Assembly (NCBI GenBank): GCA_951406725.2
Contig: OX597831.1
Location: forward strand, 53,072,001 to 53,136,000
DNA length: 64,000 nucleotides
DNA from: Octopus vulgaris
Lineage: Eukaryota
Direction of reading: 5' to 3'
In this document: positions 654-29,020 of the stretch, one piece after another
How positions within the stretch are numbered: the first letter of the stretch is position 1
Layout of the letters: every line of letters begins with the position of its first letter
Notes under the pieces: generated by a model
The model's input: the letters and a program-made list of their open reading frames with translations, nothing else
What the model was told of the DNA's origin: nothing
Databases searched by the model: none
Translations under genes and position numbers: made by a program

Positions 654-736
654 TCAGGAACGCTGGTAAGGATGACTGGAGGCTGCTTTGATGTTAGTCT
701 TGATAGTGCTTGGAGCTTTAGAAATATTGGTGGAAG
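654..736 (-). CDS. MED8: MED8 exon 7 (last coding exon; stop TGA at 654-656)
   Basis: Acceptor atatttccag; encodes [27 protein letters not shown], the conserved MED8 C-terminal IKTNIK...HPYQR motif. Confidence 0.95.
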
Positions 737-3700
737 CTGGAAATATATAAAAATTAAAGGGTAGTTTTTAAGAACACAGATTATGACCATAAATATGAAA
801 AAAATCAATCATGTTATGCTTTGCTGAACCTTTTTAAGACTAACTTAACTGACAACAGATTCCACCTTTATTTTGATGTTGGCTTGTTTGCGATAGAAAA
901 TACATCAATATGTTGCTACTTAGTCCCTGGGGAACCTGGAACAAGCAGGTCTATAATCAAAAGCTCTCCAATTGCGATTATCCTGCCTTTTCTAGACATC
1001 ATTGAAGGTGTATTTTTAAGACAATATGGTTTAATTTGGCTACTTTCACAATCACATGGTTTTAGTTTTGTTCCACTGCATAGCACCTTGGCAGTGTATC
1101 TTCTACTACAGCCCTGGTCAGGCAAAAACATGAGTGAATTTGGTAGAGTGAAACTGCAGGTAGCTTGTGGTGTGCATGTGATGCATGAAAGCTGACCTTC
1201 CAAGCAAATCACCACTTGAGCAAAATGGTCATAATGTTCACATTCCTTGTTGACATTATGACCTGTGGCTCTGTATACTGAAAGATCACCATCATCATTT
1301 TAATGTCAGCTTTGCCATGCTTGCATGGGTTGGTCGGAGTTTATGGAGGCAGATTTTCTACAGACAGATACCCTTCCTGTTGCCAGCACCCATCTGTTTC
1401 CAATCAAGGTAATATTTCCTCATGGCTTGACGTGTGTTTAGAAATTACTGACATTCATTTACACATTCACATGATGTCAAAACAAGAGAGCTCGCATGCA
1501 TGACAAGCTTCTTTCAGTTTCCAGCAACCAAATCTCAAGGCTAAGGTTGGTCCAAGGTTATAATAGAAGACACATGCCTAAGGTGCTACATAGTGGGACT
1601 GAACCCCAAACTGTGTTGTTGGGAAGCAAAGTTCTTAACCACACAGCCTGCGCTTATATAACAATACATAACACAACATGTATTTAAGAGGTTAAAAGAA
1701 ATGTAAAATGAATGAAAATGTGAGATAACTTACCTGGTGGCTTCTGAGTCTGTGGCTGAGTATTAATGTTGTTATTCTGATGAGAATTCTCAGAACGTCG
1801 AGGTGTCGGTTGTTTGAGACCTTTTCCAATAGTGATGGCCTGAATTAGAGTATTGGTATCTGCCATTGAAGATGTCTGTGGCTGTGCCGATTTCTGATCT
1901 GAAGTCCAAAAGGTAAGAAAAATTCATTTCCAGTAGACGACAGCAATATATGTGTCAGAGGTACCTTATCAATATGACCCAAATAGATATGATAGCTGGT
2001 AGTCCAATGCTACTGGCCTGTATCTTATCAGTTCAGATCTTGGCTGTTGATGAGTTCGTGGTGCTCGAGAAAAATTACCAGGTTGTTGGTAAAACATATC
2101 AAATCTGGGAACATTATCATTACCTATGATAACTAATCTCCCTTTTTAATGTGCAAAGCCAGGAGAAAAGCCAATTTTACTACATTTTTTCTGCATTGAT
2201 AACTATATTGATTGGAAAATAAAATTGAATATATGTGTGTGTATGAAAAGATATGGCTTAGTGGTTAGGGAGTTGCACTCATGATTGTGAGATTGTGGTT
2301 TTGATACCTAGATCAGGTGTTGCGTTATATTCTTGACCAAAACACTTCATTTCACATTGCTCTGCAAGCATTTCGTCATCTGACATGTAGCACATGGTGC
2401 ACTTCTACAAGTAATGTCAATATGATAGAGGAATTGAGCTTATGTGAACACAAACATTTGATCACTGATTGGTTTAAGGCTACAAAGTAAGTGGTGTGTA
2501 GCAGAACTGAACCTGAAACCATGTGGTTTGTAAAGTGAGCTTCTTAACCACACAGCCATCCCATCCCTGCACCTAAATATCAATTAAATTTCATAAGTTT
2601 TGTTGCAGTTGTTAGTTTTAAATAATTTTTCTCCAGCTCATACTCATACTCATATAATACCTCCCATACTTACTTGCTTCGCTTTCCCATTCTTCTCGAG
2701 CAGAATTGATGATGTCAATGATGTTGCTGGTGATTTTGTTTAGAGAATTTAATTGTTTCTGAAAAAAAAAAAAGAAAGAAACTGAAGTATCCAGATGGCA
2801 TTACTCTCTAATTTTTTGAAATACAATAATAATTTCCCCAGAGACATTTACTGTTTTAACTGGATTCTATTTTGTTCAAAAGGTGTGCTGAAAATCACAG
2901 ATGTTTAAACATGTTTTTATATAGTAACCCTTATCTGTTATTGAAATTCTCTCTCACTGACTTTCTGTTTTGCCTTTTCTTTTCTAGAGAAGGACCAATG
3001 CCCATCATCATCCTCATTTAGTGTCCATTTTCCATGCTGGAATGGGTTAGATAGTTTCATTGGAACTGCTAAGCTGGAGGGTTGCATCAGGCTCCAGTCT
3101 GTTTTAGCTTGGATTCTACAGCTGGATGCTCTTCCTAACACTAACCATTCTACAGAGTGTACCGGTAGCCTTTTATGTGTCACTATTATAATACAAACCG
3201 CACCACCATCACTTTAGTCAGGAGGAAGAGCATTAACTGTGCCCTTTAATAGGCAGTATTAAAGGGAATAGGTTCTGAAGACCGAAGGGAGGAAGCTATC
3301 CTCAAACTATAAACCTGGTCCAAATGCTTACGATAGACTAAAGGTACTCAGTGACCAGATACTATTGTCATTAAATTAAGTCCATTATCCAAGTACACTA
3401 CCGTCAGAAATTAATTAGCACCCTTGATTTGCTCTTCACTCAAGGTATGTGCTGTCACCTAGTGGCCATATCTCGAACTATTGCTTTGTTGCGAGTTCAC
3501 TGTTGCGCAGAACGATGACGTAACTTTGTTTGCAGAGCAGTTTGAGAGTCTACAGCCTTATGATGTTGACATAGCAGTGCAACAACTTGGAGTGCGGATG
3601 CAGACAAATCTTCCTTTGTTTAATAGATATAGGTAGCGCCTCGCAAGGACCGAAATCACACCATACTAAGTTTTCTCATCGCGTAAGACGTTTTGAACAG

Positions 3701-6700
3701 CTCATAAGGTTAATTGATTTAACCTATTTAATGTAGAAATTTGAGAAGTGCTAATTAATTTCTGACGCAAGTGTAAGTCCCAGTGAGATTTGACTCAGAC
3801 TACAAAGTCAACAAATACAGCATGGTCTAAAACACAAAGAGACAGTAAACACAGCGCTGACTCAGATCACAAAGAGCCAACAAATGCAACATTGACTCAG
3901 ACCACAAAGACTTAATAAATACAGCATACACTCGAACACAAAGAGTCATCAAATATAGCACTGACTCAAACCACACAAAGAGCCAACAAATATGGCATTG
4001 CCTCTGAACACAGAATCAACAAATATATATTTCTTTACTGCCCACAAGGAACTAAACAGAGGGGACAAACAAGGACAGACAAACGGATTAAGTCGATTAC
4101 ATCGACCCCCAGTGCGAAACTGGTGCTTTATTTATCGACTCTGAAAGGATGAAAGGCAAAGTCGACCTCGGTGGAATTTGAACTCAGAACGTAGCGACAG
4201 ACGAAATACCACTAAGCATTTCGCCCGGCATGCTAACGTTTCTGCCAGCTCGCCACCTCAAATATAGCAAGGCATTCAGCCTGTCACTAACAATTCTGCT
4301 GGTCCACTGCCAAAGACTGGTGTGTTATTGATTGATCCCAAACCCCACAAGCACCAGGGAAGGACGAAAGGCAAAGCTGAGTTCAAAGGAATTTGAATTC
4401 AGTTATGCAAGAAGCCAGAGTAAATACTTCTAGGCATTTCGTCTGATGCACATATGATTTTGTCAATTCATTGTTGCTAACATCATGGCTATGTGTTCAA
4501 ATATTACCACGATGAATATGTTGCAACTAAAACAAATTATATAATTCTTTTTGCCTCACTCTGCTTGTCTGAGAACAGGTACCAGGCCTACTTTACAGCT
4601 AAGTGTTTGGCTGCTAAGTAGAAAGTACTCAAGAGAAAAATAATAATAACAATTGTTACAAATTTTGGTACAAGGCCAGAAATTTCAGAGGGAGGAGTTT
4701 AGTTGGTTATATTTACTCCAGTATTTCACTGGCACTTTGTATTATTGACACCAAAAGAATGAAATACAAAGTCAACCTCAGCAGTATTTGAACTCAAAAT
4801 ATAAAGAGCTGAAAGAAATTTCATTAAACATTTTGTCTGTTGCTCCAACAATTTCTGCCAGTTTGCCACCTTAAGAATTGTAGTAATCGTTTCAGATTTT
4901 GGCACAAGGCCGGCAATTTTGAGGGGTGATGGAGATAGTTGATTACGTCATCCCCTGTACTTGACTGGTATTTTATTTTATCACCCCAAAAAGATGAAAA
5001 ATACAGTTGTCCTTGAAAGGATTTGAACCTAAAATTTAAAGAGCCAAAAGAAATACTGCCAAGCATTTTGTCTGATTCTGCCAGCATGCTGCCATAATAA
5101 TACTAATATCTAAAAAAAAAAAAAAAAACCCATAAATTGCTAAGCAATTAACAATAGCTAAGCATTTAATTTTAAATAAAATATGTAAGAATATAAATGA
5201 AAGAAAAAAAAAACAAAAAAAAAAACAGGATAACACTTCCAAATAATTTATATAACATAGCTTTCTACAAACATTTGGTGAATAAGTAAATATGTAAAAA
5301 AGAAATCAAATAAATTAGTTTCCAATCAACTCACTCTAGTTACTGTTGCGTCCTCAACTAACATGTTTTCATTCTTTATTCCTTTGCCCTGTCAAAACAA
5401 AAGCAAACAAGTTATAAACACATTAGTAAAATATGGTGTTACTCTTATTAATGTTGAAATGCTATGTATTACTTATGTAAAATGTAGCATTCACCATAAC
5501 ATGGACTATGAAGAAGGAGCTATACACTAGGCTTCTCACAAGGGCTTGGAAACATTTCATTGGTGGATACAAAACCAAAGCGGAAATTTATGGATACATT
5601 CCATCAATCTCTAGTGTACGAGACATTTTGACACAGCTGTTTTGGTGTCACTGGTTTGATGCTGACTTATTTGACATTAGACGTTTTAGATGTTTCTCTC
5701 ATTCTCTCACACTCTCTTTACCAATGTGTATGTGCATATTTCTCTTTATGTGTCTGAGGTGAAAGTGTGTTTAGGTCAATCACATTCAATTAATAAATTG
5801 TAATATCCCTCTATTTCTCCCCACTCTCTGTCTGTATGTGTACATTGTTATGGACATGCCCTTACTATCAACAAGTGTTTTGATAATTTATAGGCGTAGG
5901 AGTGGCTGTGTGGTAAGTAGCTTGCTTACAAACCACATGGTTCCGGGTTCAGTCCCACTGCGTGGTACCTAGGGCAAGTGTCTTCTACTATAGCCTCAGG
6001 CCGCTCAAAGCCTTGTGAGTGGATTTGGTACACGGAAACTGAAAGAAACCCGTCGTATATATGTGTGTGTGTGTGTATGCTTGTCCCCCCAACTTCGCTT
6101 GACAACCGATGCTGGTGTGTTTACGTCCTCTAACTTAGCGGTTCAGCAAAAGAGACCGATAAAACAAGTACTAGTCGATTTGATCGACTAAAGGCAGTGC
6201 TCCTGCATGGCCACAGTCAAATGACTGAAACAAGTAAAAGAGTAATGCTGGATTTACATTCTGCTACCAGTAGAGCTTAGAGTTACACTCTCTTAATGCC
6301 AGTAGGACTAAATCCAGTTAATAGAGATATCAGTATAGGAAGCCATAATTTTAAGTATCTAGACTCTGGTCACAGCACAGAAGGTGACAGGATAGGCACT
6401 ATCAATCTCTCTGATCAGTGATCTGATTTTTAAATGACTAAACCATATTTACTGCAGAAAGATTTTAAAAAAATTAATTAATTAAATAAAAGTAATGATT
6501 ACATGACTGTCTTATTTTTATGTGACATTAACCAATACTGATCTCTAGAGGCAAGAAGGCCACATATTTTAAGAGAAAGAACAATCATATTTTTACTTGA
6601 CTTTGCAGGGCATCCAAAACCAGTGGGATTGATACAATTTGTTTCTCTTGAATAGCTGACGGTCGTGGGACAAAAATATATATATATATATGTAAAATTA

Positions 6701-10878: not shown

Positions 10879-13800
10879 TACATATGGATGGGGAAATTAC
10901 ATAAGTGTCTGTTAAGACACATAATGACTTCTATTAACATAGAAATGTATAATTAGAGAAACATTTTAGCCATAATATAAGAAACCATCAAAGAAGATAA
11001 AGAAAGAAATGAAAGATACAATGAGGACAGAGAACAGTACAAATATCTGAGAAGCATGCACAATATGAGAGAGTAATGTTAGTTCAGCAAGTCTGGATCA
11101 AGAGGAGGTTTTCTTTTCTTTTTTTTAAACAACTTAAGTCAATGTTTCATAGTTGACATGTTGCTGTTGAATGGGAGACAAGACACAAGCAGACAATGAC
11201 TAAGACAACATATAGGACATAAGTACAACTTACCTGGCTGTACAGCATGTACGGCTGCCGCAAAGAAATACAGTAAAGAAATAACATTCGTTTTATTTAC
11301 ACAGTTTGGACAAGTAAGGGTTATATGGGAAAAAATAAATACATCTACGACAATAGGAATCAAAATAGGGCTTTAGTTAAATATTCAGGAATAATGAGAC
11401 AATTTTCTATATATCATCCTACTTATTTAAGCCCTTCATTCCCAATAGAGAGTAGACCATTGACAACATTTCTTCACTGTTCTCAACTTTGGACTGTCTT
11501 TTTCAGCTTCTCCAGTTTGATCTCTGCTTTTTTTTTAGCTCTACCTCAGTAACCTGCCTCCGGTTATTTTTAGGCCATCCTCTCTTCCATCATTCTAATG
11601 GGTTCCAGGTTCAACGCCTGACATGTAATGCACGATATTGGTTCCTTTACTACATCATGTTTCTGTGAGAGAAGGCCTTACTCACCCAGATCTCGATGGT
11701 TCTAAATTGTTGCTATGCTTCTATAACTTTTTTTTTAGATAGGAGTGTTAACCCTATGCAAATCAATTATTGGGAAGAGATGGTCCATATTAATCTGGCT
11801 ATTATCCATTGACCTGTCCACTATGGGAGGCCATACCAGGTGTCTGTGTTCTGCTGGAATAGCTCACAAGGTCATTGAAGTATACAAGCCACCATACCCA
11901 ACTAAAACAGGACCTTGTGGTGGTATACCCTTCAAGAGTAAGTGTATTATATTAATGCCAGTGTTTTATCAATGTGGACTTAAAGGGTAGGATTTAAACA
12001 CAGAGTGTGAAGACATGTAACTAGTTATCACTAGCTATTTTGTCCAAAGCTCTACCAAGTCTGCCATCCACTTGCTTCCTTACATTTCCACTTCTTGCAC
12101 TATGCTTACCTTCCACTCTCCAATCCTGTCCTCTTGGCCCTGTGCCTCTGTATCATTGCTCTCCGCTAGCTCCTGACCTGGGTGTTCCACCCACATGCCC
12201 TGTCTCACTGTATCATTGCTATCTGCAAGCCCCCAACCTGTCTGTTCCACCCAAATGTAACAAGAAAACTTTTCACAACCCCACCCCAACAAACCAATCT
12301 ACACCTCTACATCTCTTCTCTTCCTCACATTTCTTCCTTCATACACTATGCCTAACTCTCACTCCCTAGTCCCGTCCTCATGGCCCTCCTCCTCTTTATC
12401 ATTGCTATCCAATAGCCCATTGACTTTCTATAACCAGGTTTTAGCCAATCACCCCCACCTTCCGCACTCTTTAATTACAGTTCCTTTGCGATACCCTGCC
12501 ACTTATATTATGGCATTCGAACCTCAATATGCCCTGGAATTTGCCACCATCTATATCTCTCTCTTCCTTTACACAACTATCCCCTCTATATTCTGATCCC
12601 TGTCTCTTGTGAGTATGCCTGGCACTTTGCCACCATCTCTATCCTGCTGTCTCCCACTTTCTCTCTCCTTCTCGTTCGGCACTTCCCTCACGTTGGGTAC
12701 CATGTATTTACTTTGTGGCAGTACACCTATTTCTGTCTTCATTCCTGATTTCTCTCTCCAGCTGGGTAACCTTGTACCTCCTCTACAACAAGACACCTCT
12801 TTCTGTTTCTCTGTCTCACTATAACCTTTCATCATCTGACACAACACCACCCACTCCAAGAGATTTTTTTGGTCTTGCAAGTACTTGGTAACCCTGTCAG
12901 TGTAGGTGCTAGATAAAAGCACCCAGTCCACACTGTAAAGTGGTTAGCATTTGGAAGGGCATCCAGCTGTAAAAACCTTGTCAAAACTACCTTGTCTGTG
13001 CTTGTGCCATGTAAGAAGCACTAAGTCCACTTTGCGTGAGTGGCTGGTGTTAAGAAGGGCATCCAGCTGTAAAAATTCTGTCAAAACAGTTGCAGAAGTC
13101 TGGTGCAAGCTTTTGTCAGGCCAGCTCTTGTCAAACTGTCCCACCCATGCCAGCATGGAAGGCAGATGTTAAATGATGATGATTATGAGCACTAAGTACC
13201 TTTTACTTAAACTTGCAAAACTTTATTGCAAACTTTCTACCAGTTAAAAAACAAGAAAACAAAAAAAACAAAAACAGGTGTATATAATACACATACTTTT
13301 CCAATAGCCTTTTTTCTATTATCTTAGATATTTATTCCTGGTACCTTGTATATGTCAAGTATTCCAGCTAATGAAAAAATATATTTGCTGTTTAGTATTA
13401 TTATTATTATATTCAATAATCTGAGGCTTTCAAAACTACTTTTTGATTTTTATTTTACTTTCCATTAATTCACATAAGAATTCCATTTAAATATATTTAC
13501 TGCCCTTTCTATCTGAAGAACACAATTATTGTTATATATATATATATATATATATATGCTCAAAGGCTGTATAGTAGTACTCTTAGCACCCTTCATTAAA
13601 TAATGCTTAATATATAGCCTTCCCTCAGATATTAGTTCTTATACACTAAGGCAATCAGTCATGTTCAGGGAAAGGCCTCAACTTCTGATATATAGAGGGT
13701 CTGACCTAAGTAGATCTAGAGAATACCTAAAAAAAAAAAAGGCCCAAACTCCAATGGTAGAACAAATGGATGAAGACATATGATCTTACTGGCTGAATTG

Positions 13801-14048
13801 GCAGAAGAGGGTAATGCTTGATGGACTAGTTAAGAAGGTACAGCCCAAGCAATACATAGGCTGATGGCAGTCTGTAGCAGTTTTGTTGCCTGATCCTGAA
13901 TGTCACATATCGCCTGTGCTGTAGAGGATATCTTTAAGGCCACAGTGAGTGGGTCATTTCCTGGAAAGTTAAGATCCAACCTAATCAAAACCATGCCACT
14001 GGAATTTCTTGACCGAAGAAAGTAAAATTAGAAAACAAGAAGGAGCTG

Positions 14049-14081
<33 letters not shown>

Positions 14082-16176
14082 TACCTCAAAGACGAGTGAC
14101 AATGATCTCATCTTTGTGGCTTGGGATTTCAATGGAATGTCAAGTTAAGAAAAACGAGCATTTTCAACACCTCCTTCTTTTCGCTTTTAATCAAGGTTTT
14201 AATGCTGCAAAAGCTGCTCTCGGCATTTGTGCTGTGTATGGAGAGGGCGCCATAGCTGAAAGAACTGCTCATGATTGGTATGCCAAGTTCAAAAATGGAA
14301 ATTTTCACCTGGCCATCCAGTTGAGTTCGATGAAGAGCGATTAAACCAACTTTTGCACGAAAATTCTTGTCAAACGACAAGGGAACTGGCAGAGAAAATG
14401 AAATGCTCCCACACTGCTATAGAGAAGCATCTTCACTCAATGGGAAAGGTTCAGAAGTATAGAGCATGGGTTCTGCATGCTTTAAGTGACAACAACAAAA
14501 ATCAACTGGCCACAATCTCTGCTGGTTTGCTTGCTCATCACAGCTCAACTCATGGACACAGGCAACGGATTCTTTTCCAAATCGTTAATGACGACAAAAA
14601 ATGGTGCCTGTACATCAATATGAAGCAGCCTAAGGAATGGCTTAGCCCTGGTAAACAAGTGACATTGTACATGAAACAAGATCTTCATCCATGTAAAATG
14701 ATGTTGTGTATGGTGGGACTGAGAAGGGATTATCCATTATGAATTGCTTGAACGGAACCTAACAGTCAATGCGGAACTCTATGTTCAAGAGAAAAGACCT
14801 AATCGGCAGCATGGAGTTCATCTGCTGCATGACAACGCCCGCCCTCATATCACCAATATGACCAAGGAAGCCATTCAAACACATGGCTGGGAAGTGCTGC
14901 CACACCCACTGTACTCTCCTGATTTGGCACCCCTGGATTTCCTCCTCTTTCAAATGCTATGTGCAGAGTTTCATTCAATACTGATGCAGAATTGAGTGCT
15001 TGGTTGGATCAAGTGCACCTGTGTTGGTGGCACATAAAGAACATATTTTGAACGTTGGGCCTCATGGAGGCAAAGTGGCTGAGTTCCTTTCATGTGTTGG
15101 GCCTCACGGAGGCAAAGTCGCTAAGTTCCTTTTGAGTGTTGGGCCTCATGGAGGCAAAGTGGCCGAGTTTCGTTCGAGTGTTGGGCCTCATGGAGGCAAT
15201 GTCTATGACCTTTGGTATTATGTTGTGTTTGAGAAGACCCATCAAACCACACAAAATCGGTCATGGCAGATATTGGAGTCATGCAATTGCACCTTGGTGT
15301 CATGCAAACAGCACCAGTGACACATAAAAGCACCCGTTACACTCTCAGAGTGGTTGGCATTAGGATGGGCATCTAGCCATAGAAAACCATGCCAAATTAG
15401 ACTGGAGTCTGCTGCAGCCTTCCAGCGTGCTAGCACAGTCAAACTGTCCAACCCATGCCAGCATGTACAACGAATGTTAAATGATGATGATGTGTATATG
15501 TATATATACACATATATACATATACTAGCAGCTAAGCCTGGTTTCACCGGTCAGTTTGGATGATGTGGCTGTAAAACCTGCTCTGTGTAAGCATTTAACT
15601 TGTTTGGGCATGCTTACATTAAAAAAACAATTTTACAATGACTTATTTTTGTCAAAACCAACAAAAAAAACCAACCAAGATTCAACCAAATCAAAAAATA
15701 AACCCAAATACTAAGCAAACAAAGATGAAGCATTCCACTTCCATTGCATGTGCACACACACACCCCTTTTACATACACACACATATATTCACAGAATTGA
15801 AACGCTGTTTGATTTATTTTTTCAGCGTACAATTTGCATCATCCCACTACCAAGTATGATATCACCCCTTCCTTTCTCATTCATAAACACAAGAGTATTA
15901 TCATAGTAGATTATCTCGGTAACCATGAGAGCTATGCAAAAATACAAAGCCCAGCATCACCACCGGATCATTCTACACATCTCTGTAATTTTTCATGCAA
16001 TTCCACCCAACTGTTTGACCATGAATCCAAAGACAAGAAAGAATTACCCATGACAAATTTATACGTATAGATATATACACACACACATATATATATATCA
16101 TGCTAGCATGGAAAGCGGACGCTAAATGATATATATATATATATATATATACACACATGTGTATATATATATATAT

Positions 16177-16219
<43 letters not shown>

Positions 16220-19200
16220 CATACATATATGTAAAGGTAGGTTTAGTGAGATTGTAGAGATGCTGCATACAAGAGGTAAGATAGAGAGGAGCTTCAGCTA
16301 GGGTCCTCACAGGCAAAGCACATAGATATAAAATCTTCTGGCAAGGTAACATGGATGGAGTGGGAGTGTAAACATACTCCTTGCAGAGAAATGGGTAGAT
16401 AAAGTTATAGAGGTTGTCAAGGTATGTGGTAGAGCACTTAAGCTCAGGCTAGTCCTACAGAACAGCACAGTTTCAATTATCTCTGCCTACGCTCCATAAG
16501 AGGGCCAACGAGATGATCAGAAGGACCATTTTTATGATACCCTTCTACATGCTACTTCAAAGAGGAGTGGCACTGATCTCATCTTTGTGGCTGGAGATTT
16601 TAATGAGCATGTTGAGCAGCAATCTGGTATTTGTTCCCAAAATAATGAGGGAACTAGGCTACTGGAATTCTGTGATGCACATAACCTTTTAACCTGCAAC
16701 ACTAACTTCAGGAAACCAGACAGCCATCTGATAACCTATCAATCGGGTGACTCTGCTAGCCAGATTGATTTCATCCTCACCAGACAGCGGGATGCAGGGT
16801 TGTTCTTAAATATAAACACCCTGTGACTGAGAAGACCCAGCAAATAAAGTGAGTTCACAGCTTTATCCTACACCAGTTTCGCATAACCAGCCCACTCAAA
16901 AGCACCTTGGGTCGCAGGGCGACATGCCATACTTGAGGAGACCTACTGAGTCACATACATCAACATCAAAATGAAAATCAAATGGAAATTGTAGTTGTGA
17001 TACCAGTGCCGGTGGCACGTAAAAAGCACCCTCTACACTCAGAGTGGTTGGCGGCACTGGCAACGACCTCGCTCAAATGTTTTTTCACGTGCCACCAGCA
17101 CAAGTGCTAGTAAGGCGACGCAGGTAACGATCACGCTCGAATGGTGTTTTTAATGTGCCAGCTTGTTGCTCTGGCAACGATCTCACTCGTTTGGTACTCT
17201 TAGCGCTCCACTAACACAGATGCCAGTCATCGAATTTGATTTCGATTTCAATTCAACAGTGAGAACAGAAAATAATACTATCAAAAAATTTCCAATTTCC
17301 TGTTTTGTTATAGATATATATATATATTTTAGGGTTAGTAGTAATAGAGAATCTAAAGAAACCAAATTTCATGCCATGATAAAACATCAAAAAAGATATG
17401 GACAAGCTAGAAAAAAAAAATTTTGAAATTAAGTTAGTTATTATCTGTTATGGTACACTAATTTACATTCCTTTGATTGGAAATCTTACCTGCTTCTCAA
17501 AACTATTGAAGCAAGTTAAAATGATTTACAGCTAAAATATGTTGACTTATGTCAAGGATTCCGTATCAGGCGCAATAATGTTTAAAACCACAAGAAAGAT
17601 TGGAATATAATTGATGTTGTTGTGGTTTTGCCCCAGGACAGCCCTGCTGAAGTAAATCTATAATGAAAATGAACCAGCTATGATCATAACATCATCTTTT
17701 CAGACAATGTTTCTAGAACTACTGTCCAGTGTATCCTTCCATTTTAAGATGGTAATGTATGATCTGAAGGGAATTTGGCTGCTATTGTTACCAAGTCATA
17801 ACACAATGTAGAGGTTCCTTTGTTGATGTATTGAGAATTGGTATTTTATTGCTAGGAATGTTTGTCATAAGATGACAGGAGACAATTTAAGTAAATGTAT
17901 TTTATATGATCTAATTGTTGATATGCTGGAATGAAAAGTTAGATTAAACTTGATTGTATCTTCACTGAAAACACAAAGCTGCCATCAGCTACTCAATTGT
18001 AAAAACTCTTACAGGTTTTGAGAAAATGTCTAGTCCATTTAAGTTTCTAATCATGACAATGCCAGTAGATTTCAAAGGCATAAAATTGATGATGTATTAG
18101 TAATATATTTGAGGTTAGAGTTTGCAGCTCTTTCTGTGTCAAGCAAATTGCATTGAAGTCCTATTCATGAAGCCTGGGATCTACGTAGCTAGTACTAGTT
18201 AACTGTAGTAATTATATATTAGTTTCAGATTTTGGCACAAAGCCAGCAATATTGGGGGAGGGATGAAGCTTATTACATCGACCCCAGTGCTCAACTGGTA
18301 CTTATTTTCTTGACCCAAAAGGATGAAAGGCAAAGTCGCCTTTGGCGGAATATGAACTCAGAATATAAAGACGGGTGAAATACCATTAAGTATTTTGACT
18401 AGTGTGCTAATGATTCTGCCAGCTTCCTGCCTTAACTGTAGTAATTATATATTAATACAAGTTACCAAATTTTCTTGTGAATAAGTTGCCTCCCTAATTT
18501 AGAGTTAAATCCTGGAACAAAATTTTTTCCCTACATAGTTTTAGCTTTGCCCTATGTCTGAGTTGCACCCCAGTTTTTTTTTTTTTTAATCAAATATAAA
18601 ATAGTGTGACTTACACAAGAACAGATATAGTAATTATATTTCTTAAAGAAACTGATACTAAACACAAACAAGAAAAAAAAAAAACAAACAAAAAAACATT
18701 ATTTTTCAAAAACAACCATGCTCTCATCTTACCTGTGTTGTATCATGGCTGCTAGGGCCTAACCGACAGGTAAGTTCATTGAACTTCTCTTCAACTTCAG
18801 GTTCTGGTTTGGTTCGTAGGTATACAGGAACAACTTCATGATTGAAAATCATTAATCGGCCTTCAGTTAGTTTCTACAAAAGACAAAACAGAAAAAAAAG
18901 TTTAAAACTCTTATATTGCTGAGCAATTTCTATCCAACCGTATAGTCATGCTTACATGTGTTTCATTTGCTAATAGACATTACAAAGTTTTACATGTTAG
19001 ATAGACATATAAGAAATTTCTTTCTAGAAATTCTGCAGACAGAAAATTTATGTTTGGATGAAGTGTTTATATTTAGTACCTACACACTGTGTGTGTGTGT
19101 GTATTTGCATATACCCTTGTCTTGACATCATGTGATGGTTGTAAATGAGCATCACTGTCATATAAGCAACATTGTTTGTTTCCAGCTTTCCATGGAAAAC

Positions 19201-22200
19201 ATGTCTGGCTATGGAGAAATATTACTTTGCTTGGAAACAGGTGAGGATTGGCAATAGGAAGGGCACAGCTCTCCTCATCCATTCGTAGTACATGACCATA
19301 CCAACACAAACATCTCTCTTGCATGCCACATCTGATGCTTCTTATATCCAACATTTCTCTCAGGGCACTTACACAATGTCATGTGTGTACACTCAAATTA
19401 CACATTCAGCAGATCATGCTAGCTTCATTTCTTTCAAGCCTACGCATGTCTTCAGCAGTCACGGCCCATGTTTCACTGCCATGAAGCATGGCAGTTTGCA
19501 CACATGCATTGTACAATCTACCTTTTACACTGAGTGAGAGGCCTTTTGTCACCAGTAGGGGTAGAAGCTTTCTGAACTTTGCCCAAGCTATTCATATTCT
19601 AGTGGTAACACTCTCAGCACATCCACCCCCACTACAGACTTGGCCACCTGGGTAGCAGAAGCTATCAACTACATCTAGTTTCTCCCACTGGCATGTGATG
19701 GAATCTATTTTCTGAGCGTCTTTGGTGTTTATTGCCCCTGTGCATCTGCTGCACACGAAAGCTATCTTCCCGGTTAATCTTCCTTTGATGTTGCTGCACC
19801 TCTTATGCGTTACTCTAGATCTGGAAGGAACTTTGACCCATCTGCAGACTTGGTCTGTGGCACTCAGTAAGCTGTTCAATAGGAATTTCCAGCTACCTTC
19901 TATGTCCGAGGTCTGTAGCTCCTCCTTCCTCTCATCAAATTTCTTATGAGGATGTCCTTAAATCTCTGACCATATGAAAGATTCTTTAGCTTCCAAATCC
20001 TTCTTTTCTGGAATGATCTGCCACTTGGCATCCTTCTGGCCTTGAGTCTAAAGTCAGTAATGACTAGTCTTTGCTGGGGGGGGGGTTACATTCTTCACCC
20101 AGGAGGGTCTTTGTATTTAAGAGCAACCCTGTGTCCCGCTGTCTGGTGAAGAGGAAATCAATCTGGCTAGCAGAGTCACCTGATTGATAGGTTATCAGGT
20201 GGCTGTCTGGCTTCCTGAAGTTAGTGTTGCAGATTAAAAGGTTACATGCATCACAGAACTCCAGTAGCCTAAAAATTGATTAGCCTGCATTTATTTTTTT
20301 CTTTCTATGATATGAAGCATTTTGCTTTATAAAATCCATGTTTAACCCTTTAGTGTTCACATTATTCTGCCAAAGTTAATGCCTTTTCATCCACATTGTT
20401 TTGAACTAATCATTCATTAATCTTGTAGCTATGAGATTTTGATGAGGTAGCTGTTAATTTTTAAAACGATATTGTAGGGTTGGTGTGAGAGACCAGATCT
20501 GGCCAGTTTGAACATAAAACAGGCAGAATACTTTTGGCCGTATATGGCCGGTTTAAATTAAAATTTTCCAGCATAATCGATGTAAGAACCTTGTGTTCAT
20601 GTTTATGTTCAAGTAACAGCTTAATAATGAAGAGATTAGTTTTTTTTATTAAATCCCTTCAAATTTGTGATTATTCTACAAACCCTTTAGCATACAGATT
20701 AATTTATTAAATGTAATGCTTATTTATCCACATTTTTTAAAAATTAATCATGTGGTATCTTGTAGCTTCAAGACTTTGAAGATGTCACTGTTTATTTTTA
20801 GAATAACATTGCAGGGTAGGTGTGAGAGACTGGATCACACCTACAGGTAGAATATTTGGGCTAGATATGACTAGTTTAAATTACAAGAGTGTATTTCATA
20901 CATGTTCACAACAGAGTTCAAAACATTTCTTGTATGGCATTTGTAAAATTTTGAAATAAATTTTCAGAACAGAGGGTTAAAAATAACATTAAAAGAAAGA
21001 AGCTATCAATCAAGACTATAGATTCATATATTTGATGAACAGTTGCTTTCAAATATTTAGAAACATTAAAAAGTTACTTCAAGTTCTGGATCTTTATCTG
21101 GAGAAAGAGCAAGTGGTAGTAAGACATAATTCTTCAAAGGTGGGATTTTTTCACTTTTCAATAATCGCGTCAATGAATTCAGCTGTCCTGAGAGCAAGGC
21201 AAAATTATCAAGTGCATTTGGCCTGGAAAAAGAGAGAAGAAAAAGAAAAAGCAAAGTTGAAACCTGTTCAGAAATATTGGAGATGTAGGAAGACATGGAA
21301 ACAAAGTAATGAAAAAACTGAACATGAAAGAGACAACAAAAAAAAAATCATAATAGGAGACTTGTGATACTGGAGAGGACTTTCCCACTAATGCCAACAT
21401 AACAAAATGGTCATTAAATTAATGATGGTGGTGATGAAGGTTGGGGTATATATAACTAGGTCTCTTGTTTAATATATTCCTATTAAGTCTCCCTTTGTTC
21501 TTTATTTATCACTAATCTATTCACTGTACCATATCACCTGTGAAATAAGGTCACTGTTCATATTGAATCCACCTTTCATCCAAACTTTGCTTCTCTCTCA
21601 CCATCCCACTTTATCACTTTATGTCTCAACTCCTCTCTTCCACAACAATTCCCAAGTAAAAAGGAATGGAAATAGATATGTTTGTATTCGGCACTCAATA
21701 ACATCACCCTTTTCTGCTAACCATCTCTACCCCAAGTGACTCTTCATTGATATTTACCACTGTTATCATCATCCACATCCATTACTGTCACCTGCTCTCT
21801 CTCTCTTACCACAACACAACTTTATTGCTATCCCATTATATTGTGCTATTTTTCTTCAATCTCCTCTCTAAAACCTAAAGTCAAAGTGTTTATTTAACTT
21901 GCAACAATATAAAATTATTTCCTTATTTGACTAATATCAACTACATAAAGTACCAGACACTATGAAAGGTGTGTAGCAGAACCATGATTGTTCTTTACCT
22001 TTAGATATCTGCATTTTGCCTCTTTACCTTTAGATACCCATTTTGGCTCATCATGTGATGGTCAAGTCCATTTAGCTTAACGTGGGCTGTCCACCCCTTA
22101 ATGTGATAGACTAGCCAAGTGTCCCTACATCAGCTATTTAAGGGAAGCTTTTTCCCTCGCTTATTTCTTAGGGAGGTGAGTTTGGATTGACATGAGAGCA

Positions 22201-25200
22201 GTTGATTCCACTTTGTAGCTTCAGCAAGGGCAAAACTGTAGCAGGAATTTCTTGATGCAATGCTTAGCATTTTTTTCCAATGTTCATCTTCATTTTCAAG
22301 AAACACTTTGAAACTATGTAATGTATTTGACAGATTTTTCACGTTATGCTAGTTGCTGTATTTCCATTTAGTGTTGGAATAAATGTTGCAGTCAATTTTA
22401 TTGATGTTCGTTATCCTGATTTTTATTTATCCAACCTAGCTAAAACCAAAGTCCTAATAAGTAGGAAGGTAGACAAACCACAAACCCCTTCAAGTAGATG
22501 GCCCTGCTTGATCTGGAGAAAAGGCGTAGGTAGAAACTCTATAAGCTGTACCCAGTGTAAGCTATGGACACATAAGAGGTGCAGCAATATCAAAGGAAGG
22601 CTAACTAGGAAGATAGTTTTTGTATGTGGCAGATGCTCAGGAGCAATAAACACTGAAAATGCACAGAGAACAACTTCTGCTATATTCCAGGGAGAAAAAC
22701 TAGAAGTAGTTGATTGCTTCCGTTACCTAGGTGACCAAGTCAGTAGTGGGGGCGGGTGTGCTGAAAGTGTAACTGCTAGAGTAAGAATAGCCTGGGCAAA
22801 GTTCAGAGAGCTCTTACCTCTGCTGGTGACAAAGGGCCTCTCGCTCAGAGTAAAAGGCAGACTGTATGATGCGTGTGCATGAACAGCCATGCTACATGGC
22901 AGTGAAACATGGGCCGTGACTGCTGAGGACATGCGCAAGTTTGCAAGGAATGAAGCCAGTATGCTCCGATGGATGTGTAATGTCAGTGTACATACTCAAC
23001 AGAGTGTAAGTACCTTGAGAGAAAAGTTAGACCTAAGAAGCATCAGTTATGGTGTGCAAGAGAGACGATTGCGCTGGTATGGTCATGTGGCGAGAATGGA
23101 TGAAGATAGCTGTGTGAAAAAGTGCCACACCCTAGCGGTTGAGGGAACCTGTGGAAGAGGTAGACCCAGGAAAACCTGGGATGAGGTGGTGAAGCATGAT
23201 CTTCGAACATTAGGCCTCACAGAGGCAATGACTAGTGACCGAGACCTTTGGAAATATGCTGTGCGTAAGAAGACCCGGCAGAACAAGTGAGACCATAACC
23301 CATGGCCTTTACCAGAATGTAGCCAGCCCACTTATGCATACCTTTGCTTCTTTGGACACAAAACTCTGCTTGCGAAGACCTGTTGAGGCAAGTGAAATCA
23401 AAATTGAAATTGAATTCGAAAATCGAACCAAATTCGTCGATTGGCACCCATGCCAACCTCCCTTCACTGGACACTAAACTCTGCTTGCGAAGACCTGTTG
23501 GGGCAAGTGAAATCGAAATCGAACCAAATTCGATGACTGGCACCCATGCCAGTGGAGCGCTAACAGCTCCATCCAAGCAGGATCACTGCCAGAGCAGCTG
23601 TCTGGCTCGTAAAGAGCACCATTTGAGCGTGATCGTTGTCAGCGTTGCCTCACTAGCACTTGTGCTGGTAGCACGTGAACAAAACATTCGAGCGAGGTTG
23701 TTGCCAATGCTGCTGGACTGACTCTTGTGCAGGTGGCACATAAAAAACACCATTTTCGAGCGTGGCCGTTGCCAGTACCACCAGACTGGCCCTTGTGCTG
23801 GTAGCACTTTAAAAGCACCCACTACACCCTCGGAGTGGTTGGCATTAGGAAGGGCATCCAGCTGTAGAAACTCTGCCAGATCAGATTGGAGCCTGGCACA
23901 GCCATCTGGTTCGCCAGTCCTCAGTCAAATTGTCCAACCCATGCTAGAATGGAAAGCGGACGTTAAATGATGATGATGATATTATATTACCAGGACTTAA
24001 ATCACATTGCATTGCATCATTTAACACGACACTATGCAAAGTGTTTCAGTGTAATTTGCCTGACATTACACCACTGAGTTTCTCCTGCAACACTCATATT
24101 TTCTTCTCCTCCATCTTATTGGTCACATTGGATACATTAGATAGTGCAATTATAGATATAAATAAAATTATGGGATAATCACAACTGGAACATTCTTGAT
24201 AAGTCAGTTTGACAGGGCTGACTCGTGGTTAAACAACAGCAATGAGCTCCATTTTCCTTTAAAAAGAGAAAACTGGAAAAATTATATTACTCACCATGAC
24301 ATCGAAGCATATTCATGCTCTATTTTCATCAGAAAACTGTGAATACAATTTTTCAAATCAGAAATTCTCTGTGTGATTGTATCTAAAGCGGCTTCTAACT
24401 GTTTTTCTTCTCGCTATGAAAATCAAATGAAAAATATTTGTTAAAACATATTTTATGAAACCTTTTTCTTGTCAAAGGAAAGGATAAGAGATATTAAAGG
24501 ATATGTAAATATCCAAATTTGCAAAATAATCTGTTTCCATTCACTATTTTAATATTTGTTTCCTACTTTCTTTATCATCATCATTGCTGAACCTTACGAA
24601 GGAGATGACAGATGACCGAGATATGTGGTACATTGCTGTACTCGAGAAGACCCAGCCATCACAACAGAATTGAGATCCTAGAGCCAAGGTACCACATAAA
24701 AAGCATTGATGCGGATGCTGGTATCACATAAAAAGCACTGGTAATGGTGACATGTAAAAAGCACCCACTACTGTCAGTAAAGTGGTTGGCCTTAGGAAAG
24801 GCATCCAACTATAGACACCAAGCCAAAACAGAATATGGAGCCTGGTGCAGACCCTGGCTTTGCCTGTTACTGTCAATCCATCCAACTCATGCCAGTATGG
24901 AAAATGGACATTAAATACTGATAATAATGATGATCATCATCGTTTTAACATCCACTTTTCTATGCTTGCATGGGTTAGATAGAATTTTGAGAAATTTTCA
25001 ACGGCCAAATGGTTTTCCTGTCACCAACTATTATCTGTTTCCAAGCAAAGAAATATTACTCCATGGTTGTGACATGTTCAGGTAAAATATTGGAAATGAA
25101 TGGCATTCATTTACTGCAATTTTGCAATATCAAGACAAATACACACACCTATGTGTATATATGGTGGGATTCTTTCAGATCTCATCTACTAAATCAACTC

Positions 25201-28200
25201 ATGAGGCTCTGGTTGGCCTGGGGCAATAGGAGAAATTTGTCAAAAGTGTCATGCAGTGGGACTGAATCTAAAATCACGTGGTTGAGAAGCAAACTGCTTA
25301 ACCACACAGCCATGCTGGCATCTTTTTTAGATGGGGAAAAATATTAAAATAGTGAATAAAAACAATACCACATAAATACAAACTTGGCACTTGTTTCATA
25401 TACAATTCCCACTGTATTTTAAAATTTAGAAAGAAATTTCAAATGAAGTTTAAGATAATTGCAAAAAGGTTGAAAATAGCATGTTCTACCTCCAACAATT
25501 TCATTATTTAGTTAATTCAGATGTGACTGCCATCCCTCACATAATTATGCATTGTTGGTGGAAATCTTCAATCCAGATGGTGATAATAGAAAATAAAATT
25601 GTGTCCATGCATACAAACAAAAGCGGGAGGTCCTAATGGCAGTACACTCAAATGAGTAAATAACATACTATCATCATTTTAACATCTACTTTTCTATGCT
25701 CGCATGAGTCAGATGGCATTTGCTGAAGTGAATTTTCTATGACTGGATGCCCTTTCTGTCGCCAACCCTATGTAAGGTAATATTTCTATGTTTCTATGCA
25801 AGGTAATATTGGGTTGTCTGGAAAGTTTGTGCCGATTTATTGTAGCTTACCTTTTGACTTATTTTAGAACAAGGTTGAGTCCATAAAATAGGATTTGACT
25901 ACACCTCCATTTAGAGCACAGTTTAAGCTATCTTTTCGTGGAAGAAGGTTTATGTTCCTATAACCTGTGTTAGTTCTGTAACCCTTTAAAATGAAAGATA
26001 AGAAAGTTCATTTTCAGCACTTGATGCTTTTCTTTTTCTGTAAAGGGAAAAATGTCTCACAAGCAACCAAAGAAATATGCGCAGTTTACAGTGAAGTTTC
26101 TTTATCTGAAAGAACTGCATGGAAGTGGTTCACAAGGTTCTGGGCTGGAGATTGTAGCCTTATTGATAAAGAGCGATCAGGCAGACCATCCTCTACAGAT
26201 GATGACCAAATCAAGTCATTAATTGAGAATAACACACATTGCACAGCCCGAGAATTGGCAGAAAGCCTCAACCTATCAAAATCCGTCATTCATGAGCACC
26301 TGGTAAAACTTGGGTACACAAATCACTACGATGTTTAGGTAACACATGAGTTGAGTGAGAAGAACCTTTTGGATCACATTTCCATCTGTGATTTGCTTTA
26401 TAAACTGAATGAAAACGCGCCTTTTTTAAAGCAAATTGTGACAAGTGATGAGAAATGGATTATCTACCAAAATGTTCAGAGAAAGCGATACTGGAGTAAG
26501 CGACATGAGCCACCCTTAGTCTCCCCAAAAGCAGGTCTTCACTCTAAAAAGGTCTTGCTTTGTGTCTGGTAGGATTGGAAAGGAATTCTGTACTATGAGC
26601 TTCTCCCAAGTAACCAGACAATTAATTCTGAGAAATACTGCACACATCTGGACGAGTTAAAAGTAGCAATTCAAGAGAAACGTCCAGAATTGGCCAACAG
26701 GAAGGGTGTTGTTTTCCAACATGATAATGCAAGACCGCACGTTTCTTTGGGAACCAGACAAAAATTGCTGCAGCTCGGCTGGGATGTGTTACCCCACCCT
26801 CCATATTCACCAGATATTGCTCCTTCGGATTTCCATTTATTCAGGTCTCTGCAGAATAGTCTTAATGGTAAAAATTTCAATTCCTTGGATGACGTAAAAA
26901 AATACCTTGATGAATTATTTGCCATAAAATCACCTCAATTCTGGTAAGAGGGAGACGCATTGTGCAACAAAATGGTTCAAATTTGGTTGATTAAAAAAGT
27001 AATGGCAAGTATTTATTGACCTTTTTCTTTCCTTTGAAAATCTGCACGAACTTTCCGAACAACCCAATATTTCCCCATGACCAAACATGTTTTCACAGAA
27101 GACTGGCAATGAAGGACATCAATTGCATGACTGTGGCACTTGTTGGCAAACAACTATCACGCGAAATCAAGGGAAGGAGACACACATACACGACGGACCT
27201 GTTTCAGTTTTCACCCACCAAATCTACTCACAAGGCTCTGATCGGCCCGGAGCTTTAGTAGAAGACGCTTGCCCAAGGTCCCACGCAGAGGGACTGAGCC
27301 GAGGATCGTGTGATTGAGAAGCAAACAGCCACGTATATATATATATATATATATTCAATCAGACTGAGTTATTGATTATTAAGGTTTGTCTGTAAATGGC
27401 ATGTAAGCTACATTTTAAAGAATATCTGAAATTCTTTGTATTAAGTTTTCGTCAAGAGCAAGCCTCATGAATATTATGTGTACTGCGATAAAGTAAATGT
27501 ACAATTGTTTACCTGTTTCGCTTTATATGATAAAGTTTTAGGAATAGAGAAATTATGTGAGAATATGACGGAAACTGCTTTAGAATTTTATTTAGCTTTA
27601 GAAAGCAAGGGATAATTCGTAAATTGATAACTGGAAGTGACCGCTGACAAATGTAGCGAGATTTCAAGCGGAAATAAAGTTAGTTTACAATTCTACAGGA
27701 GCAAAATACACATTTTAAACTAAAGTATCAAAACAAAATCCAGTTTGTTTCCAGGAATAATGAAAACAAACAAAATTAACCTAAGTCATTATTCAATGTT
27801 GAAATAAATGTCGAAAGTAAACCATTTCAAGTTTTTACCGGATAGAACGAATATTTCTAATTTTTATTGTTTACAATTAATTTTCACGAAAAGAAAATAA
27901 ATACAAATAATTTAACAATAAGATTAACAAATCCGACTTTCCACATGTGTTATGCTACATGGTTTGCATGAACTATCTCGGTTATGTTTTATTTACATCT
28001 ATTTATATATAAATATAAATTGTACTCAGTAAAAATGTTTGTTTTATCATGCAATTTACAAACGATATACTCCAATTCAAAAGTAGAGCTTTATTTTAAA
28101 TTAAACTTTAGCAGATATCGCAGCTTCAATTTTAGTATTGAAAATGTATTAAATTGCAGTGTGTTTATGTCACACATTTATACGCAGCATTGTTAAATAT

Positions 28201-28729
28201 TAGGTTGTCCCAAAAGTTCGTAAACACTTGCGAAAATTGAATTTTTACTCGCCAAGTACTAACAAAAACAACAAAAATTATTCCTCAAAATAAAGACCAT
28301 TATTTTCCAAGACTTTCTACGAACTTTTGGGACAACCTTATAGTAAGTCACATCTAAGATGCGGTAGTCGAAACATTATCTCTAAAGAGTTTTAATAGCA
28401 TTTTCCTTTTAATTTACCATGTATAATAGAGAACTACAGGAACGGATCAACGGAAGTTTATTAATATGAACTGAAAAAATGGTTTTTCAAACGTTTTTTT
28501 TACGACTTTTGAATATAACAGTCATAACTGCTTCAGAAACTTCTCATGGGATCCATATGTAAGCAAAATGATGAATCGGATGAAACGTATTACGGATGTT
28601 TAGATAATTCAACTGGAGTTAGAAAACTGAGAGAAATAATATATATATTTATATATGATAAGATATACTATTAAAGAATCTGAAATAATAAACAAAGATA
28701 ATAATAATGTGAGCAATAATTACCTGCAT
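654..28729 (-). CDS. MED8: Mediator of RNA polymerase II transcription subunit 8, complete 7-exon CDS: complement(join(654..736,1734..1898,2674..2758,18733..18873,21078..21222,24295..24413,28724..28729)), 744 nt, 247 aa
   Basis: The spliced translation [24 protein letters not shown]...[16 protein letters not shown]...[15 protein letters not shown]...[18 protein letters not shown]...KQLNSLNK...[15 protein letters not shown]...[16 protein letters not shown] matches metazoan MED8 motifs from end to end. All introns are GT-AG and the phases join (0,2,0,0,1,1). Confidence 0.97.
1734..1898 (-). CDS. MED8: MED8 exon 6
   Basis: Acceptor ttcag, donor CAG/gtaagt; [35 protein letters not shown]...KPP; phase 1-1. 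Confidence 0.93.
2674..2758 (-). CDS. MED8: MED8 exon 5
   Basis: Acceptor tttttcag, donor gtaagt; [28 protein letters not shown]; phase 0-1. Confidence 0.93.
3396..3773 (+). mobile_element. Tc1/mariner-type non-autonomous element (MITE)
   Basis: 26-bp TIRs CACTACCGTCAGAAATTAATTAGCAC / GTGCTAATTAATTTCTGACGCAAGTG (2 mismatches), with TA on both sides. Confidence 0.85.
3791..4024 (+). repeat. Minisatellite of about 34-35 bp, about 7 diverged copies
   Basis: Approximate unit TGACTCAGACCACAAAGAGCCAACAAATACAGCAT repeated in tandem. Confidence 0.8.
4031..4257 (-). mobile_element. tRNA-derived SINE, family B (core CCTTTCATCCTT...GTCGATAAA...ACCAG)
   Basis: Head GGCGAGCTGGCAGAAACGTTAGC with B-box GAGTTCAAATTCC. 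Further copies at about 4655-5095, 18225-18432, 41068-41383, 43919-44078, 47230-47820 and 61146-61305. Confidence 0.8.
5335..5388 (-). CDS. MED8: Candidate MED8 alternative cassette exon (54 nt, [18 protein letters not shown])
   Basis: Branch-like TACTAAT, U-rich tract, gacag acceptor and AGA/gtgagt donor; phase 0-0 with no stop; lies in the phase-0 intron 4. Confidence 0.6.
5500..5660 (+). mobile_element. Old RTE-X-like LINE fragment
   Basis: Translates YTRLLTRA...[15 protein letters not shown], similar to the intact segment at 46557-46999. Confidence 0.55.
5892..6243 (+). mobile_element. tRNA-derived SINE, family A (full length)
   Basis: A-box TGGCTGTGTGG, B-box GGTTCAGTCCC, CORE-like GGGCAAGT, internal (TG)n and tail TGACTGAAACAAGTAAAAGAG. 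Confidence 0.88.
7310..7790 (+). mobile_element. RTE LINE 3' end
   Basis: [19 protein letters not shown]-terminus plus a 3'UTR ending in (GAT)n; same family as 22432-23980. Confidence 0.8.
7984..10171 (+). mobile_element. Highly decayed mariner element with nested insertions
   Basis: Degenerate TIRs at both ends. Remnants of the transposase N-terminus (HCLLYKF...[10 protein letters not shown]), ELHQKK/VWWN and HPPYS motifs are interrupted by SINEs (about 8260-8620) and LINE fragments (about 9180-9830). Confidence 0.6.
10644..10664 (-). CDS. MED8: Candidate MED8 microexon (21 nt, IQRTSIK)
   Basis: Branch-like CTTAAC, ttatTGCtcag acceptor and AAA/gtgaga donor; phase 0-0 with no stop. Confidence 0.5.
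11234..11254 (-). CDS. MED8: Candidate MED8 microexon (21 nt, PYMLYSQ)
   Basis: About 88 nt without AG upstream, ttcttTGCggcag acceptor and consensus CAG/gtaagt donor; phase 0-0 with no stop. Confidence 0.6.
14132..15008 (+). mobile_element. Mariner transposase pseudogene (TIRs lost)
   Basis: [11 protein letters not shown]..., WVLHAL (WVPHEL-like), DDKKW, HDNARPH and [13 protein letters not shown], with frameshifts and deletions. Confidence 0.9.
15010..15492 (+). mobile_element. RTE-derived 3' element with a 4 x 42-bp tandem repeat
   Basis: GTTGGGCCTCA(T/C)GGAGGCAA at 15054, 15096, 15138 and 15180; ends in (GAT)n. Confidence 0.8.
16235..16825 (+). mobile_element. RTE LINE apurinic endonuclease fragment
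   Basis: [26 protein letters not shown] and SQIDFIL motifs, with stops. Confidence 0.88.
18733..18873 (-). CDS. MED8: MED8 exon 4
   Basis: Acceptor ttttgtag, donor CAG/gtaaga; [47 protein letters not shown]; phase 0-0. Confidence 0.96.
19267..20270 (-). mobile_element. RTE LINE fragments (endonuclease joined to RT C-terminus)
   Basis: Minus-strand [11 protein letters not shown]...[14 protein letters not shown] and SQIDFL motifs; internally deleted. Confidence 0.85.
20342..20885 (+). mobile_element. Two TTAA-type (piggyBac-like) MITE copies
   Basis: Begins TTAACCCTTTAG; body shared with copies at 46010, 52571, about 59990-60167 and 62953. Confidence 0.7.
21078..21222 (-). CDS. MED8: MED8 exon 3
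   Basis: Acceptor ttttccag, donor gtaact; (W)[48 protein letters not shown]; phase 2-0. Confidence 0.96.
22432..23980 (+). mobile_element. Relatively young 5'-truncated RTE LINE (RT 3' part, Zn finger, C-terminus, 3'UTR, (GAT)n tail)
   Basis: NLAKTKVL...FRYLG...AMLHGSETW...[11 protein letters not shown]...GRGRPRKTW; one frame with a single premature stop at 22880-22882. Confidence 0.93.
24295..24413 (-). CDS. MED8: MED8 exon 2
   Basis: Acceptor tttcatag, donor gtgagt; [39 protein letters not shown](W); phase 0-2. Confidence 0.96.
25809..27067 (+). mobile_element. Near full-length mariner (DD34D) element with inactivated transposase (25991 to about 26993)
   Basis: 30-bp TIRs (TTGGGTTGTCTGGAAAGTTTGTGCCGATTT), TA target duplication, TSDEKW and HDNARPH[10 protein letters not shown] with 34-residue D-D spacing. 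Three in-frame stops and a C-terminal deletion. Confidence 0.95.
28200..28340. mobile_element. Mariner-derived MITE, 141 bp
   Basis: 21-bp perfect inverted repeat AGGTTGTCCCAAAAGTTCGTA with TA flanks. Confidence 0.88.
28724..28729 (-). CDS. MED8: MED8 exon 1 coding part (ATG CAG)
   Basis: aaacATGCAG/gtaatt on the minus strand; supplies the MQ of the conserved MQREEKQ N-terminus. Confidence 0.88.
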
Positions 28730-28978
28730 GTTTATCTGTCGGGTAAATAATATCTCTAATAAGTTTGATTACTTCCGGTGTGTTGTAAGAGAGGAGAGTT
28801 CAGCGGATGTTGTTACTGTCATCACATGATTGACAAAATGGATGTCGTCTCAGACGATTCGATGGGTTGAGATATTAAACAGGATTATTTATAAACTACC
28901 TGGGCACAGTTTTGTGTCTCCAGCGAAATTCAGTAAGATAGAAGAAAAAATTAAAAAAGAAAAACAAACTTGCTTACA
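28730..28978. promoter_or_regulatory. Bidirectional promoter and 5'UTRs shared by MED8 and SZT2
   Basis: 249 bp between divergent ATGs with no recognisable transposon. Contains an ETS/GABP-type motif ACTTCCGG (28771-28778) and a YY1-like CAAAATGG (28834-28841); CpGs look more frequent here than in the introns. Confidence 0.8.
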
Positions 28979-29020
28979 ATGGATGAAACAGATGAAGCTA
29001 GAAGCTTTGACGGAGATCAA
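28979..29020 (+). CDS. SZT2: SZT2 exon 1 (MDETDEARSFDGDQ)
   Basis: ATG in acaATGG context, acidic N-terminus, CAA/gtaaca donor; phase 0 joins exon 2. Confidence 0.75.

Follow-up and report, generated by a model that had tools for sequence, protein, structure and literature searches.

The exon studied here is closest to the neural microexons controlled by eMIC-bearing proteins. According to PMC8797185, a long AG-free zone and a UGC close to the acceptor mark eMIC targets, and fly eMIC exons additionally have a UCUC tract, a CUAAY branch point and a weak donor. The study 10.1101/2024.09.17.613571 reports a UGC in 74-79% of SRRM3/4 microexons, where the motif is common but not required, and gives 5' splice-site strength as the best correlate of inclusion in mammalian targets. 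Within Mediator, the PMC8797185 supplement lists a Med23 exon of 18 nt, and PMC12868881 reports that deletion of the mouse Med23 microexon advances neurogenesis gene programmes. The preprint 10.64898/2026.09.05.749416 uses the term type I convergence where orthologous genes of separate lineages have gained different small exons within one and the same part of the protein. The searchable literature has very little on cephalopod microexons.

We analyzed a 64,000-nt stretch of Octopus vulgaris DNA (the window), in which an initial annotation made from the letters alone had singled out a 21-nt exon with a consensus donor, encoding the peptide PYMLYSQ, on the minus strand. We confirm that 11254-11234 is a real, alternatively spliced, frame-preserving microexon of the Mediator subunit gene MED8, kept in octopus and cuttlefish. 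Its sequence is CCGTACATGCTGTACAGCCAG, flanked by ...tttgcggcag and gtaagt; the length of 21 nt falls within the 3-27 nt limit of the microexon class and the ends are canonical (cag before the exon, gtaagt after it). The donor (11228..11233, minus strand), taken with the last CAG of the exon, agrees with the CAG/GTAAGT consensus at 9/9 positions and is the best of all MED8 donors. Upstream of the acceptor lies an AG-exclusion zone of exactly 88 nt (11257..11344, minus strand), where the initial annotation had estimated about 88, and the proximal UGC that it had pointed out is present at -8 to -6 (11260..11262, minus strand). Among MED8 acceptors, that of the microexon has the longest upstream AG-free zone and the closest UGC. 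The description of the exon as a GC-richer island in unique AT-rich sequence also held, with 57% GC in the microexon against 31% upstream and 36% downstream, and with the 201-bp microexon region matching only itself in the genome in a search that skips very common words. A repeat or duplicated origin is unsupported, as this region and the 54-nt exon downstream of it each have one genomic match in that search.

The host gene and the 54-nt partner exon had not been named in the initial annotation and were identified here. Used as a query, the exon at 18873-18733 retrieved 42 proteins, 42/42 with the Pfam domain PF10232 (MED8); the match to human MED8 in PDB 7emf has an E-value of 3.9e-59, and the top Foldseek hits are Mediator structures. 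Translation of nine exons on the minus strand, spanning 28729 to 654, reproduces the 272-aa protein P0001 at every letter, and the same exons without the microexon give exactly the 265-aa protein P0043, with the frame preserved. By this coding-sequence match, the gene consists of the first coding bases, encoding Met-Gln (28724..28729), exon 2 (24295..24413), exon 3 (21078..21222), the 141-nt exon 4 that is the upstream partner of the microexon (18733..18873, also supported by contigs), the phase-0 cassette microexon itself (11234..11254), a phase-0 exon of 54 nt encoding 18 residues that is its downstream partner (5335..5388, single copy in the genome), an exon starting with KQLNSLNK in a conserved helix (2674..2758), the penultimate coding exon (1734..1898) and the last coding exon, which runs to the stop codon (654..736). 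PYMLYSQ is frame 0 of the microexon and forms residues 138-144 of the 272-aa isoform, in agreement with the peptide first proposed. The other two frames, RTCCTA and VHAVQP, were excluded because the phase at the end of exon 4 is 0 and PYMLYSQ alone occurs in the proteins.

Databases carry the pair of 272 and 265 aa under O. sinensis, as isoforms X1 and X2, and under O. vulgaris, as two proteins; the same pair of isoforms is given for O. bimaculoides, so both forms are on record for three Octopus species. The initial annotation had named conservation in other coleoids as a check, and a cuttlefish provides it: the MED8 models of Sepia pharaonis, of 263 and 256 aa, differ by SYMVYSQ, with 5/7 residues identical to octopus. 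Octopus and cuttlefish lineages split roughly 270-300 million years ago. A further MED8 pair in the same cluster has the insert on 17 contigs and no insert on 49, and Argonauta has the skipping form alone in the protein collection, which does not speak for a loss. Short protein fragments spanning the microexon insert were searched for, and none was found. The microexon is already in automated gene models, which carry no statement on its regulation or function.

Public transcript assemblies contain both forms. We examined 7 of the 20 runs with all sampled words; these are assembled contigs with coded samples and come from four studies, and such contigs show a single path for each run rather than a level of inclusion. 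None of the runs listed is recorded as RNA or has raw reads. The four contigs aligned to the window carry the spliced joint between exon 3 and exon 4 (4/4 runs) and are therefore transcript-derived. Read letter by letter, assemblies X1 and X6 pass from exon 4 through the microexon into the 54-nt exon, X6 with one base change that is synonymous, and the predicted junction, the microexon end ACAACACAG joined to CCGTACATG, was found in X1. Assemblies X12 and X19, also read by letter, join exon 4 directly to the 54-nt exon and skip the microexon. We called X3, X4 and X5 from the end of the match, which extends by one base when the next letter is the G expected on skipping, a behaviour also seen in X12 and X19. 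This places X3 and X4 among the skipping assemblies and X5 with the including ones; tail length is 425 letters for X4 and 446 for X6. The microexon is included in 3/7 assemblies and skipped in 4/7, the letters having been seen in four and the call inferred in three. Species does not explain the difference, because both outcomes occur within study P2 (two including, two skipping) and within organism label A (one of each). Other short candidate exons of the same intron are unused in the four contigs with letters seen and in any listed isoform.

We give a probability of roughly 0.6 to the reading that the microexon is mainly neuronal, included through an eMIC/Srrm234-type activator, and that it would provide the Mediator head module with a form of MED8 bearing the short aromatic motif YM(L/V)YSQ in a predicted flexible loop. 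Neural eMIC-type control is the preferred reading in view of the AG-free zone, the UGC, the strong donor and the exon of eMIC-like type in the genome. The 88-nt zone and the UGC at -8 form the pair typical of eMIC targets, although not strictly required in them. The likeness to neural microexon architecture that the initial annotation had drawn stands for these two signals and for the donor, but it does not extend to the strong CUAAY branch point and UCUC-rich tract that are enriched (not required) in fly eMIC exons. We found no CTAAY within 150 nt upstream of the microexon, where the yUnAy words that resemble branch points, at -85, -64 and -23, are weak. The 150 nt scanned contain a single TCTC, at -145, and the acceptor has no UCUC tract close to it.

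The eMIC-like exon matches positions 13-55 of the SRRM_C profile with 32.6 bits against a Pfam cut-off of 27; it is a single exon of the domain, and no continuation of the domain was found within 20 kb downstream. Profile matches of cwf21 or eMIC-like type lie at G000:C25:35789896, G000:C25:37317492 and G000:C27:11415 (L006, L004 and L005). Two of these are cwf21-domain loci: on C27 an SRRM2-like frame that is apparently intronless, and on C25 a cwf21 exon whose start has diverged. The C25 locus shares its strand with the eMIC-like exon and lies 1.5 Mb upstream of it, and a link between the two would be putative. The cwf21 loci may reflect a duplication of Srrm234 into general and eMIC-bearing copies, as in vertebrates.

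Under eMIC-type control, the microexon would be too short for default exon definition and would be skipped. Where an eMIC-bearing protein is present, the UGC and the AG-free tract would be used to recruit U2AF/SF1, and the perfect donor would bind U1, leading to inclusion. The seven residues would then extend the coleoid insert at the MED8 helix hairpin from 18 to 25 with the frame intact, and the longer loop could expose YM(L/V)YSQ for contact or for phosphorylation, so that the insert would tune a Mediator-neck protein contact rather than switch MED8 off.

Regulation by another programme instead of the neuronal eMIC is an unlikely alternative; it could be tied to muscle or to a developmental stage, or depend on RBFOX/CELF/ELAV-type factors that bind in the downstream intron and act from there. 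The downstream intron is UG-rich, with 9 TGT per 80 nt at 11154..11233 (minus strand) against 1.8 expected from the window rate, and this tract is a possible candidate enhancer. At +174 stands a TGCATG (11055..11060, minus strand), which we take to be an RBFOX-type word; it is a weak indication, as the chance of one within 300 nt is about 12%. The lack of CUAAY and UCUC would suit such a programme as well, and the run-to-run differences are silent on which tissue includes the microexon. The combination of the longest AG-free zone and closest UGC among the acceptors of the gene argues against it, as does the statement in 10.64898/2026.09.05.749416 that convergent tissue-specific exons are prominent mainly in neural tissue and somewhat in muscle.

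Where the microexon sits in the protein bears on whether it has any function. We fetched 261 MED8 proteins, of which 241 were scorable at the junction (10 lacked the anchor and 10 the helix); the set consists of top-scoring hits and members of 30 clusters, and is an uneven sample with no named Nautilus protein. No insert is present at the junction in 200/241, and the spacing there is identical in 98/100 non-coleoid proteins. Coleoid MED8 has an insert in 11/11 cases, of 18 residues in six and 25 in five. The 54-nt exon is found in 11/11 coleoid proteins scored and in no other proteins of the set, in which Nautilus is unrepresented; no coleoid protein without it was seen among the 11. The region of this exon (5335-5440, minus strand) has its own 51-nt AG-free zone, with CTAAT at -38 and TGC at -17, and its donor is the weakest of MED8 (5/9). 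To judge from these signals, it looks as if the 54-nt exon began as a regulated one.

Structure models place the insert in a hairpin. In the insert-free model, that of a chiton MED8 built on 100 sequences, helices span residues 115-130 and 133-167, and the junction at 137/138 falls five residues into the second helix. In the inclusion model, residues 128-150 are coil with pLDDT below 50, and the helix resumes at 151, within the 54-nt exon. The seven microexon residues are thus predicted to fall in a flexible loop, in models that are both of single-chain MED8 with a pTM of about 0.3. A stretch predicted to be disordered could tolerate additions, and the microexon might be included to an intermediate extent in every tissue, as a nearly neutral extension of a loop already opened by the 54-nt exon; inclusion near 50% everywhere could give the observed 3/7 and 4/7 assembled paths. 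We consider this improbable, since octopus and cuttlefish have kept the length, the frame, 5/7 residues and the optional use of the exon, at a junction that is otherwise fixed in length.

We also asked how often such an exon arises by chance in the 13.3 kb between exon 4 and the 54-nt exon, using 200 dinucleotide shuffles. Candidates had to preserve the frame, measure 3-27 nt and have a donor of at least 8/9, an AG-free zone of at least 60 nt and a TGC within 22 nt, terms chosen post hoc with the microexon already known; one candidate is present in the real span, and 1/200 shuffles reached that number. On stricter terms (donor 9/9, AG-free zone of at least 80 nt), 0/200 shuffles passed. An AG-free zone by itself is not rare, as the span has 6 gaps of at least 88 nt among 854 AGs. 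Although long AG-free gaps can thus arise by chance in an AT-rich intron, a chance pseudo-exon or annotation noise is refuted, and given almost no credence, by the junction letters from two independent studies, the isoform pairs in several species, the orthologous cuttlefish peptide and the exact coding-sequence match.

Optional inserts at this junction are not restricted to coleoids. In a comparison of 31 protein pairs, 18 differ at the microexon junction and 13 elsewhere; the 18 comprise four coleoid, one chiton and two Physella pairs, nine within-species hymenopteran pairs from eight genera and two cross-species bee pairs. Hymenoptera (sawflies, wasps, ants and bees) have an optional 3-aa insert, DYN, DCN, DSN or DYS, exactly at the junction. 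The likely source is a separate 9-nt exon, because a start with Asp cannot begin with GT and the Asn-ending forms cannot end with AG. Three bee or wasp models resembling intron read-through diverge at the junction, and two of them start with V, which fits a phase-0 intron at this position. The coleoid and hymenopteran inserts are likely independent in origin, because the peptides are unalike save for a tyrosine in some, and as far as the sequences indicate they match type I convergence as defined in 10.64898/2026.09.05.749416. The chiton insert (+13 aa, starting with V and ending with K) and the Physella insert (+8 aa, ending with K) were not counted as separate exons, as alternative splice-site use could explain them. 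In Nasonia, P0197 and P0138 (isoforms X2 and X4) also lack the KQ directly after the junction, an independent 6-nt shift that together with the DYN insert yields four forms of MED8.

A more far-reaching and tentative proposal is that coleoids make a neuron-specific Mediator head by means of the MED8 microexon and that, at the same residue, an unrelated microexon evolved in bees, ants, wasps and sawflies; we regard this as possible, with the odds against it. If true, the core Pol II coactivator would carry a convergent splicing switch in two groups of invertebrates noted for their elaborate brains. With its separate hymenopteran insert at this junction, MED8 is a candidate convergence hotspot.

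In the rest of the window, SZT2 lies head-to-head with MED8 (28724-29020), with plus-strand exons near 37850-38000 and 50830-51055; these two exons match human SZT2 with E-values of 8.9e-8 and 1.9e-18. The human SZT2 and MED8 genes are also head-to-head. The likely first ATG of SZT2 is at 28979, 250 bases from the MED8 ATG, and the sole CCGGAAGT (an ETS-type word) of the window is at 28771, between the two. The MED8 introns contain what we take to be broken remnants of mariner-like transposases at 13985-14995 (+) and 25982-26947 (+). Frame fragments at 22331-23290 (+), 19073-19957 (-), 16500-16826 (+), 41946-42375 (+) and 46566-47030 (-), all intronic, are presumably of LINE-like reverse transcriptase/endonuclease. 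Tandem repeats with periods of 42 nt and 35/104 nt lie in MED8 introns at 15046-15203 and 3790-4025.

We found no literature linking MED8 with a microexon in a search that left most subscription journals outside, and no title on a microexon among the matches listed for MED8 alternative splicing or isoforms. MED8 was not found in the main text of 10.64898/2026.09.05.749416, which analyzed O. bimaculoides and honeybee tissues, or in the PMC8797185 supplement or the searchable supplements of PMC9699675. The MED8 microexon is a clean and conserved case that is easy to assay, and its host is an essential subunit of the transcription machinery. If neural, it would serve as a reporter of cephalopod eMIC activity and would put directly to the test the idea, suggested by the mouse Med23 result, that splicing retunes Mediator in neurons.

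Compared with known systems, the exon and peptide are identical to those of the annotated X1/X2 isoforms of O. vulgaris and O. sinensis, which are automated models, as are the two MED8 models of Sepia pharaonis. With the eMIC-dependent neural microexons (SRRM3/4, Srrm234) the exon shares a length of 3-27 nt, frame preservation, a long AG-exclusion zone and a UGC by the acceptor. Its strong donor is like those of mammalian eMIC targets and unlike the weak donors described for fly eMIC exons. It differs from eMIC targets in having no CUAAY or UCUC, and by its sequence it is a candidate for neural bias and eMIC dependence. MED8 is a core transcription subunit, whereas tissue-specific splicing is reported mostly for cytoskeletal and intracellular machinery, with housekeeping genes largely unregulated. 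The type I convergent neural exons (fly spg/DOCK3-4 and syd/SPAG9) show the same pattern that the sequences suggest for MED8 of coleoids and Hymenoptera. The mouse Med23 microexon, likewise a small exon within a Mediator subunit, is the nearest functional precedent, but it belongs to another lineage and another subunit, MED23 being part of the tail module and MED8 of the head neck, and there is no sign of shared origin.
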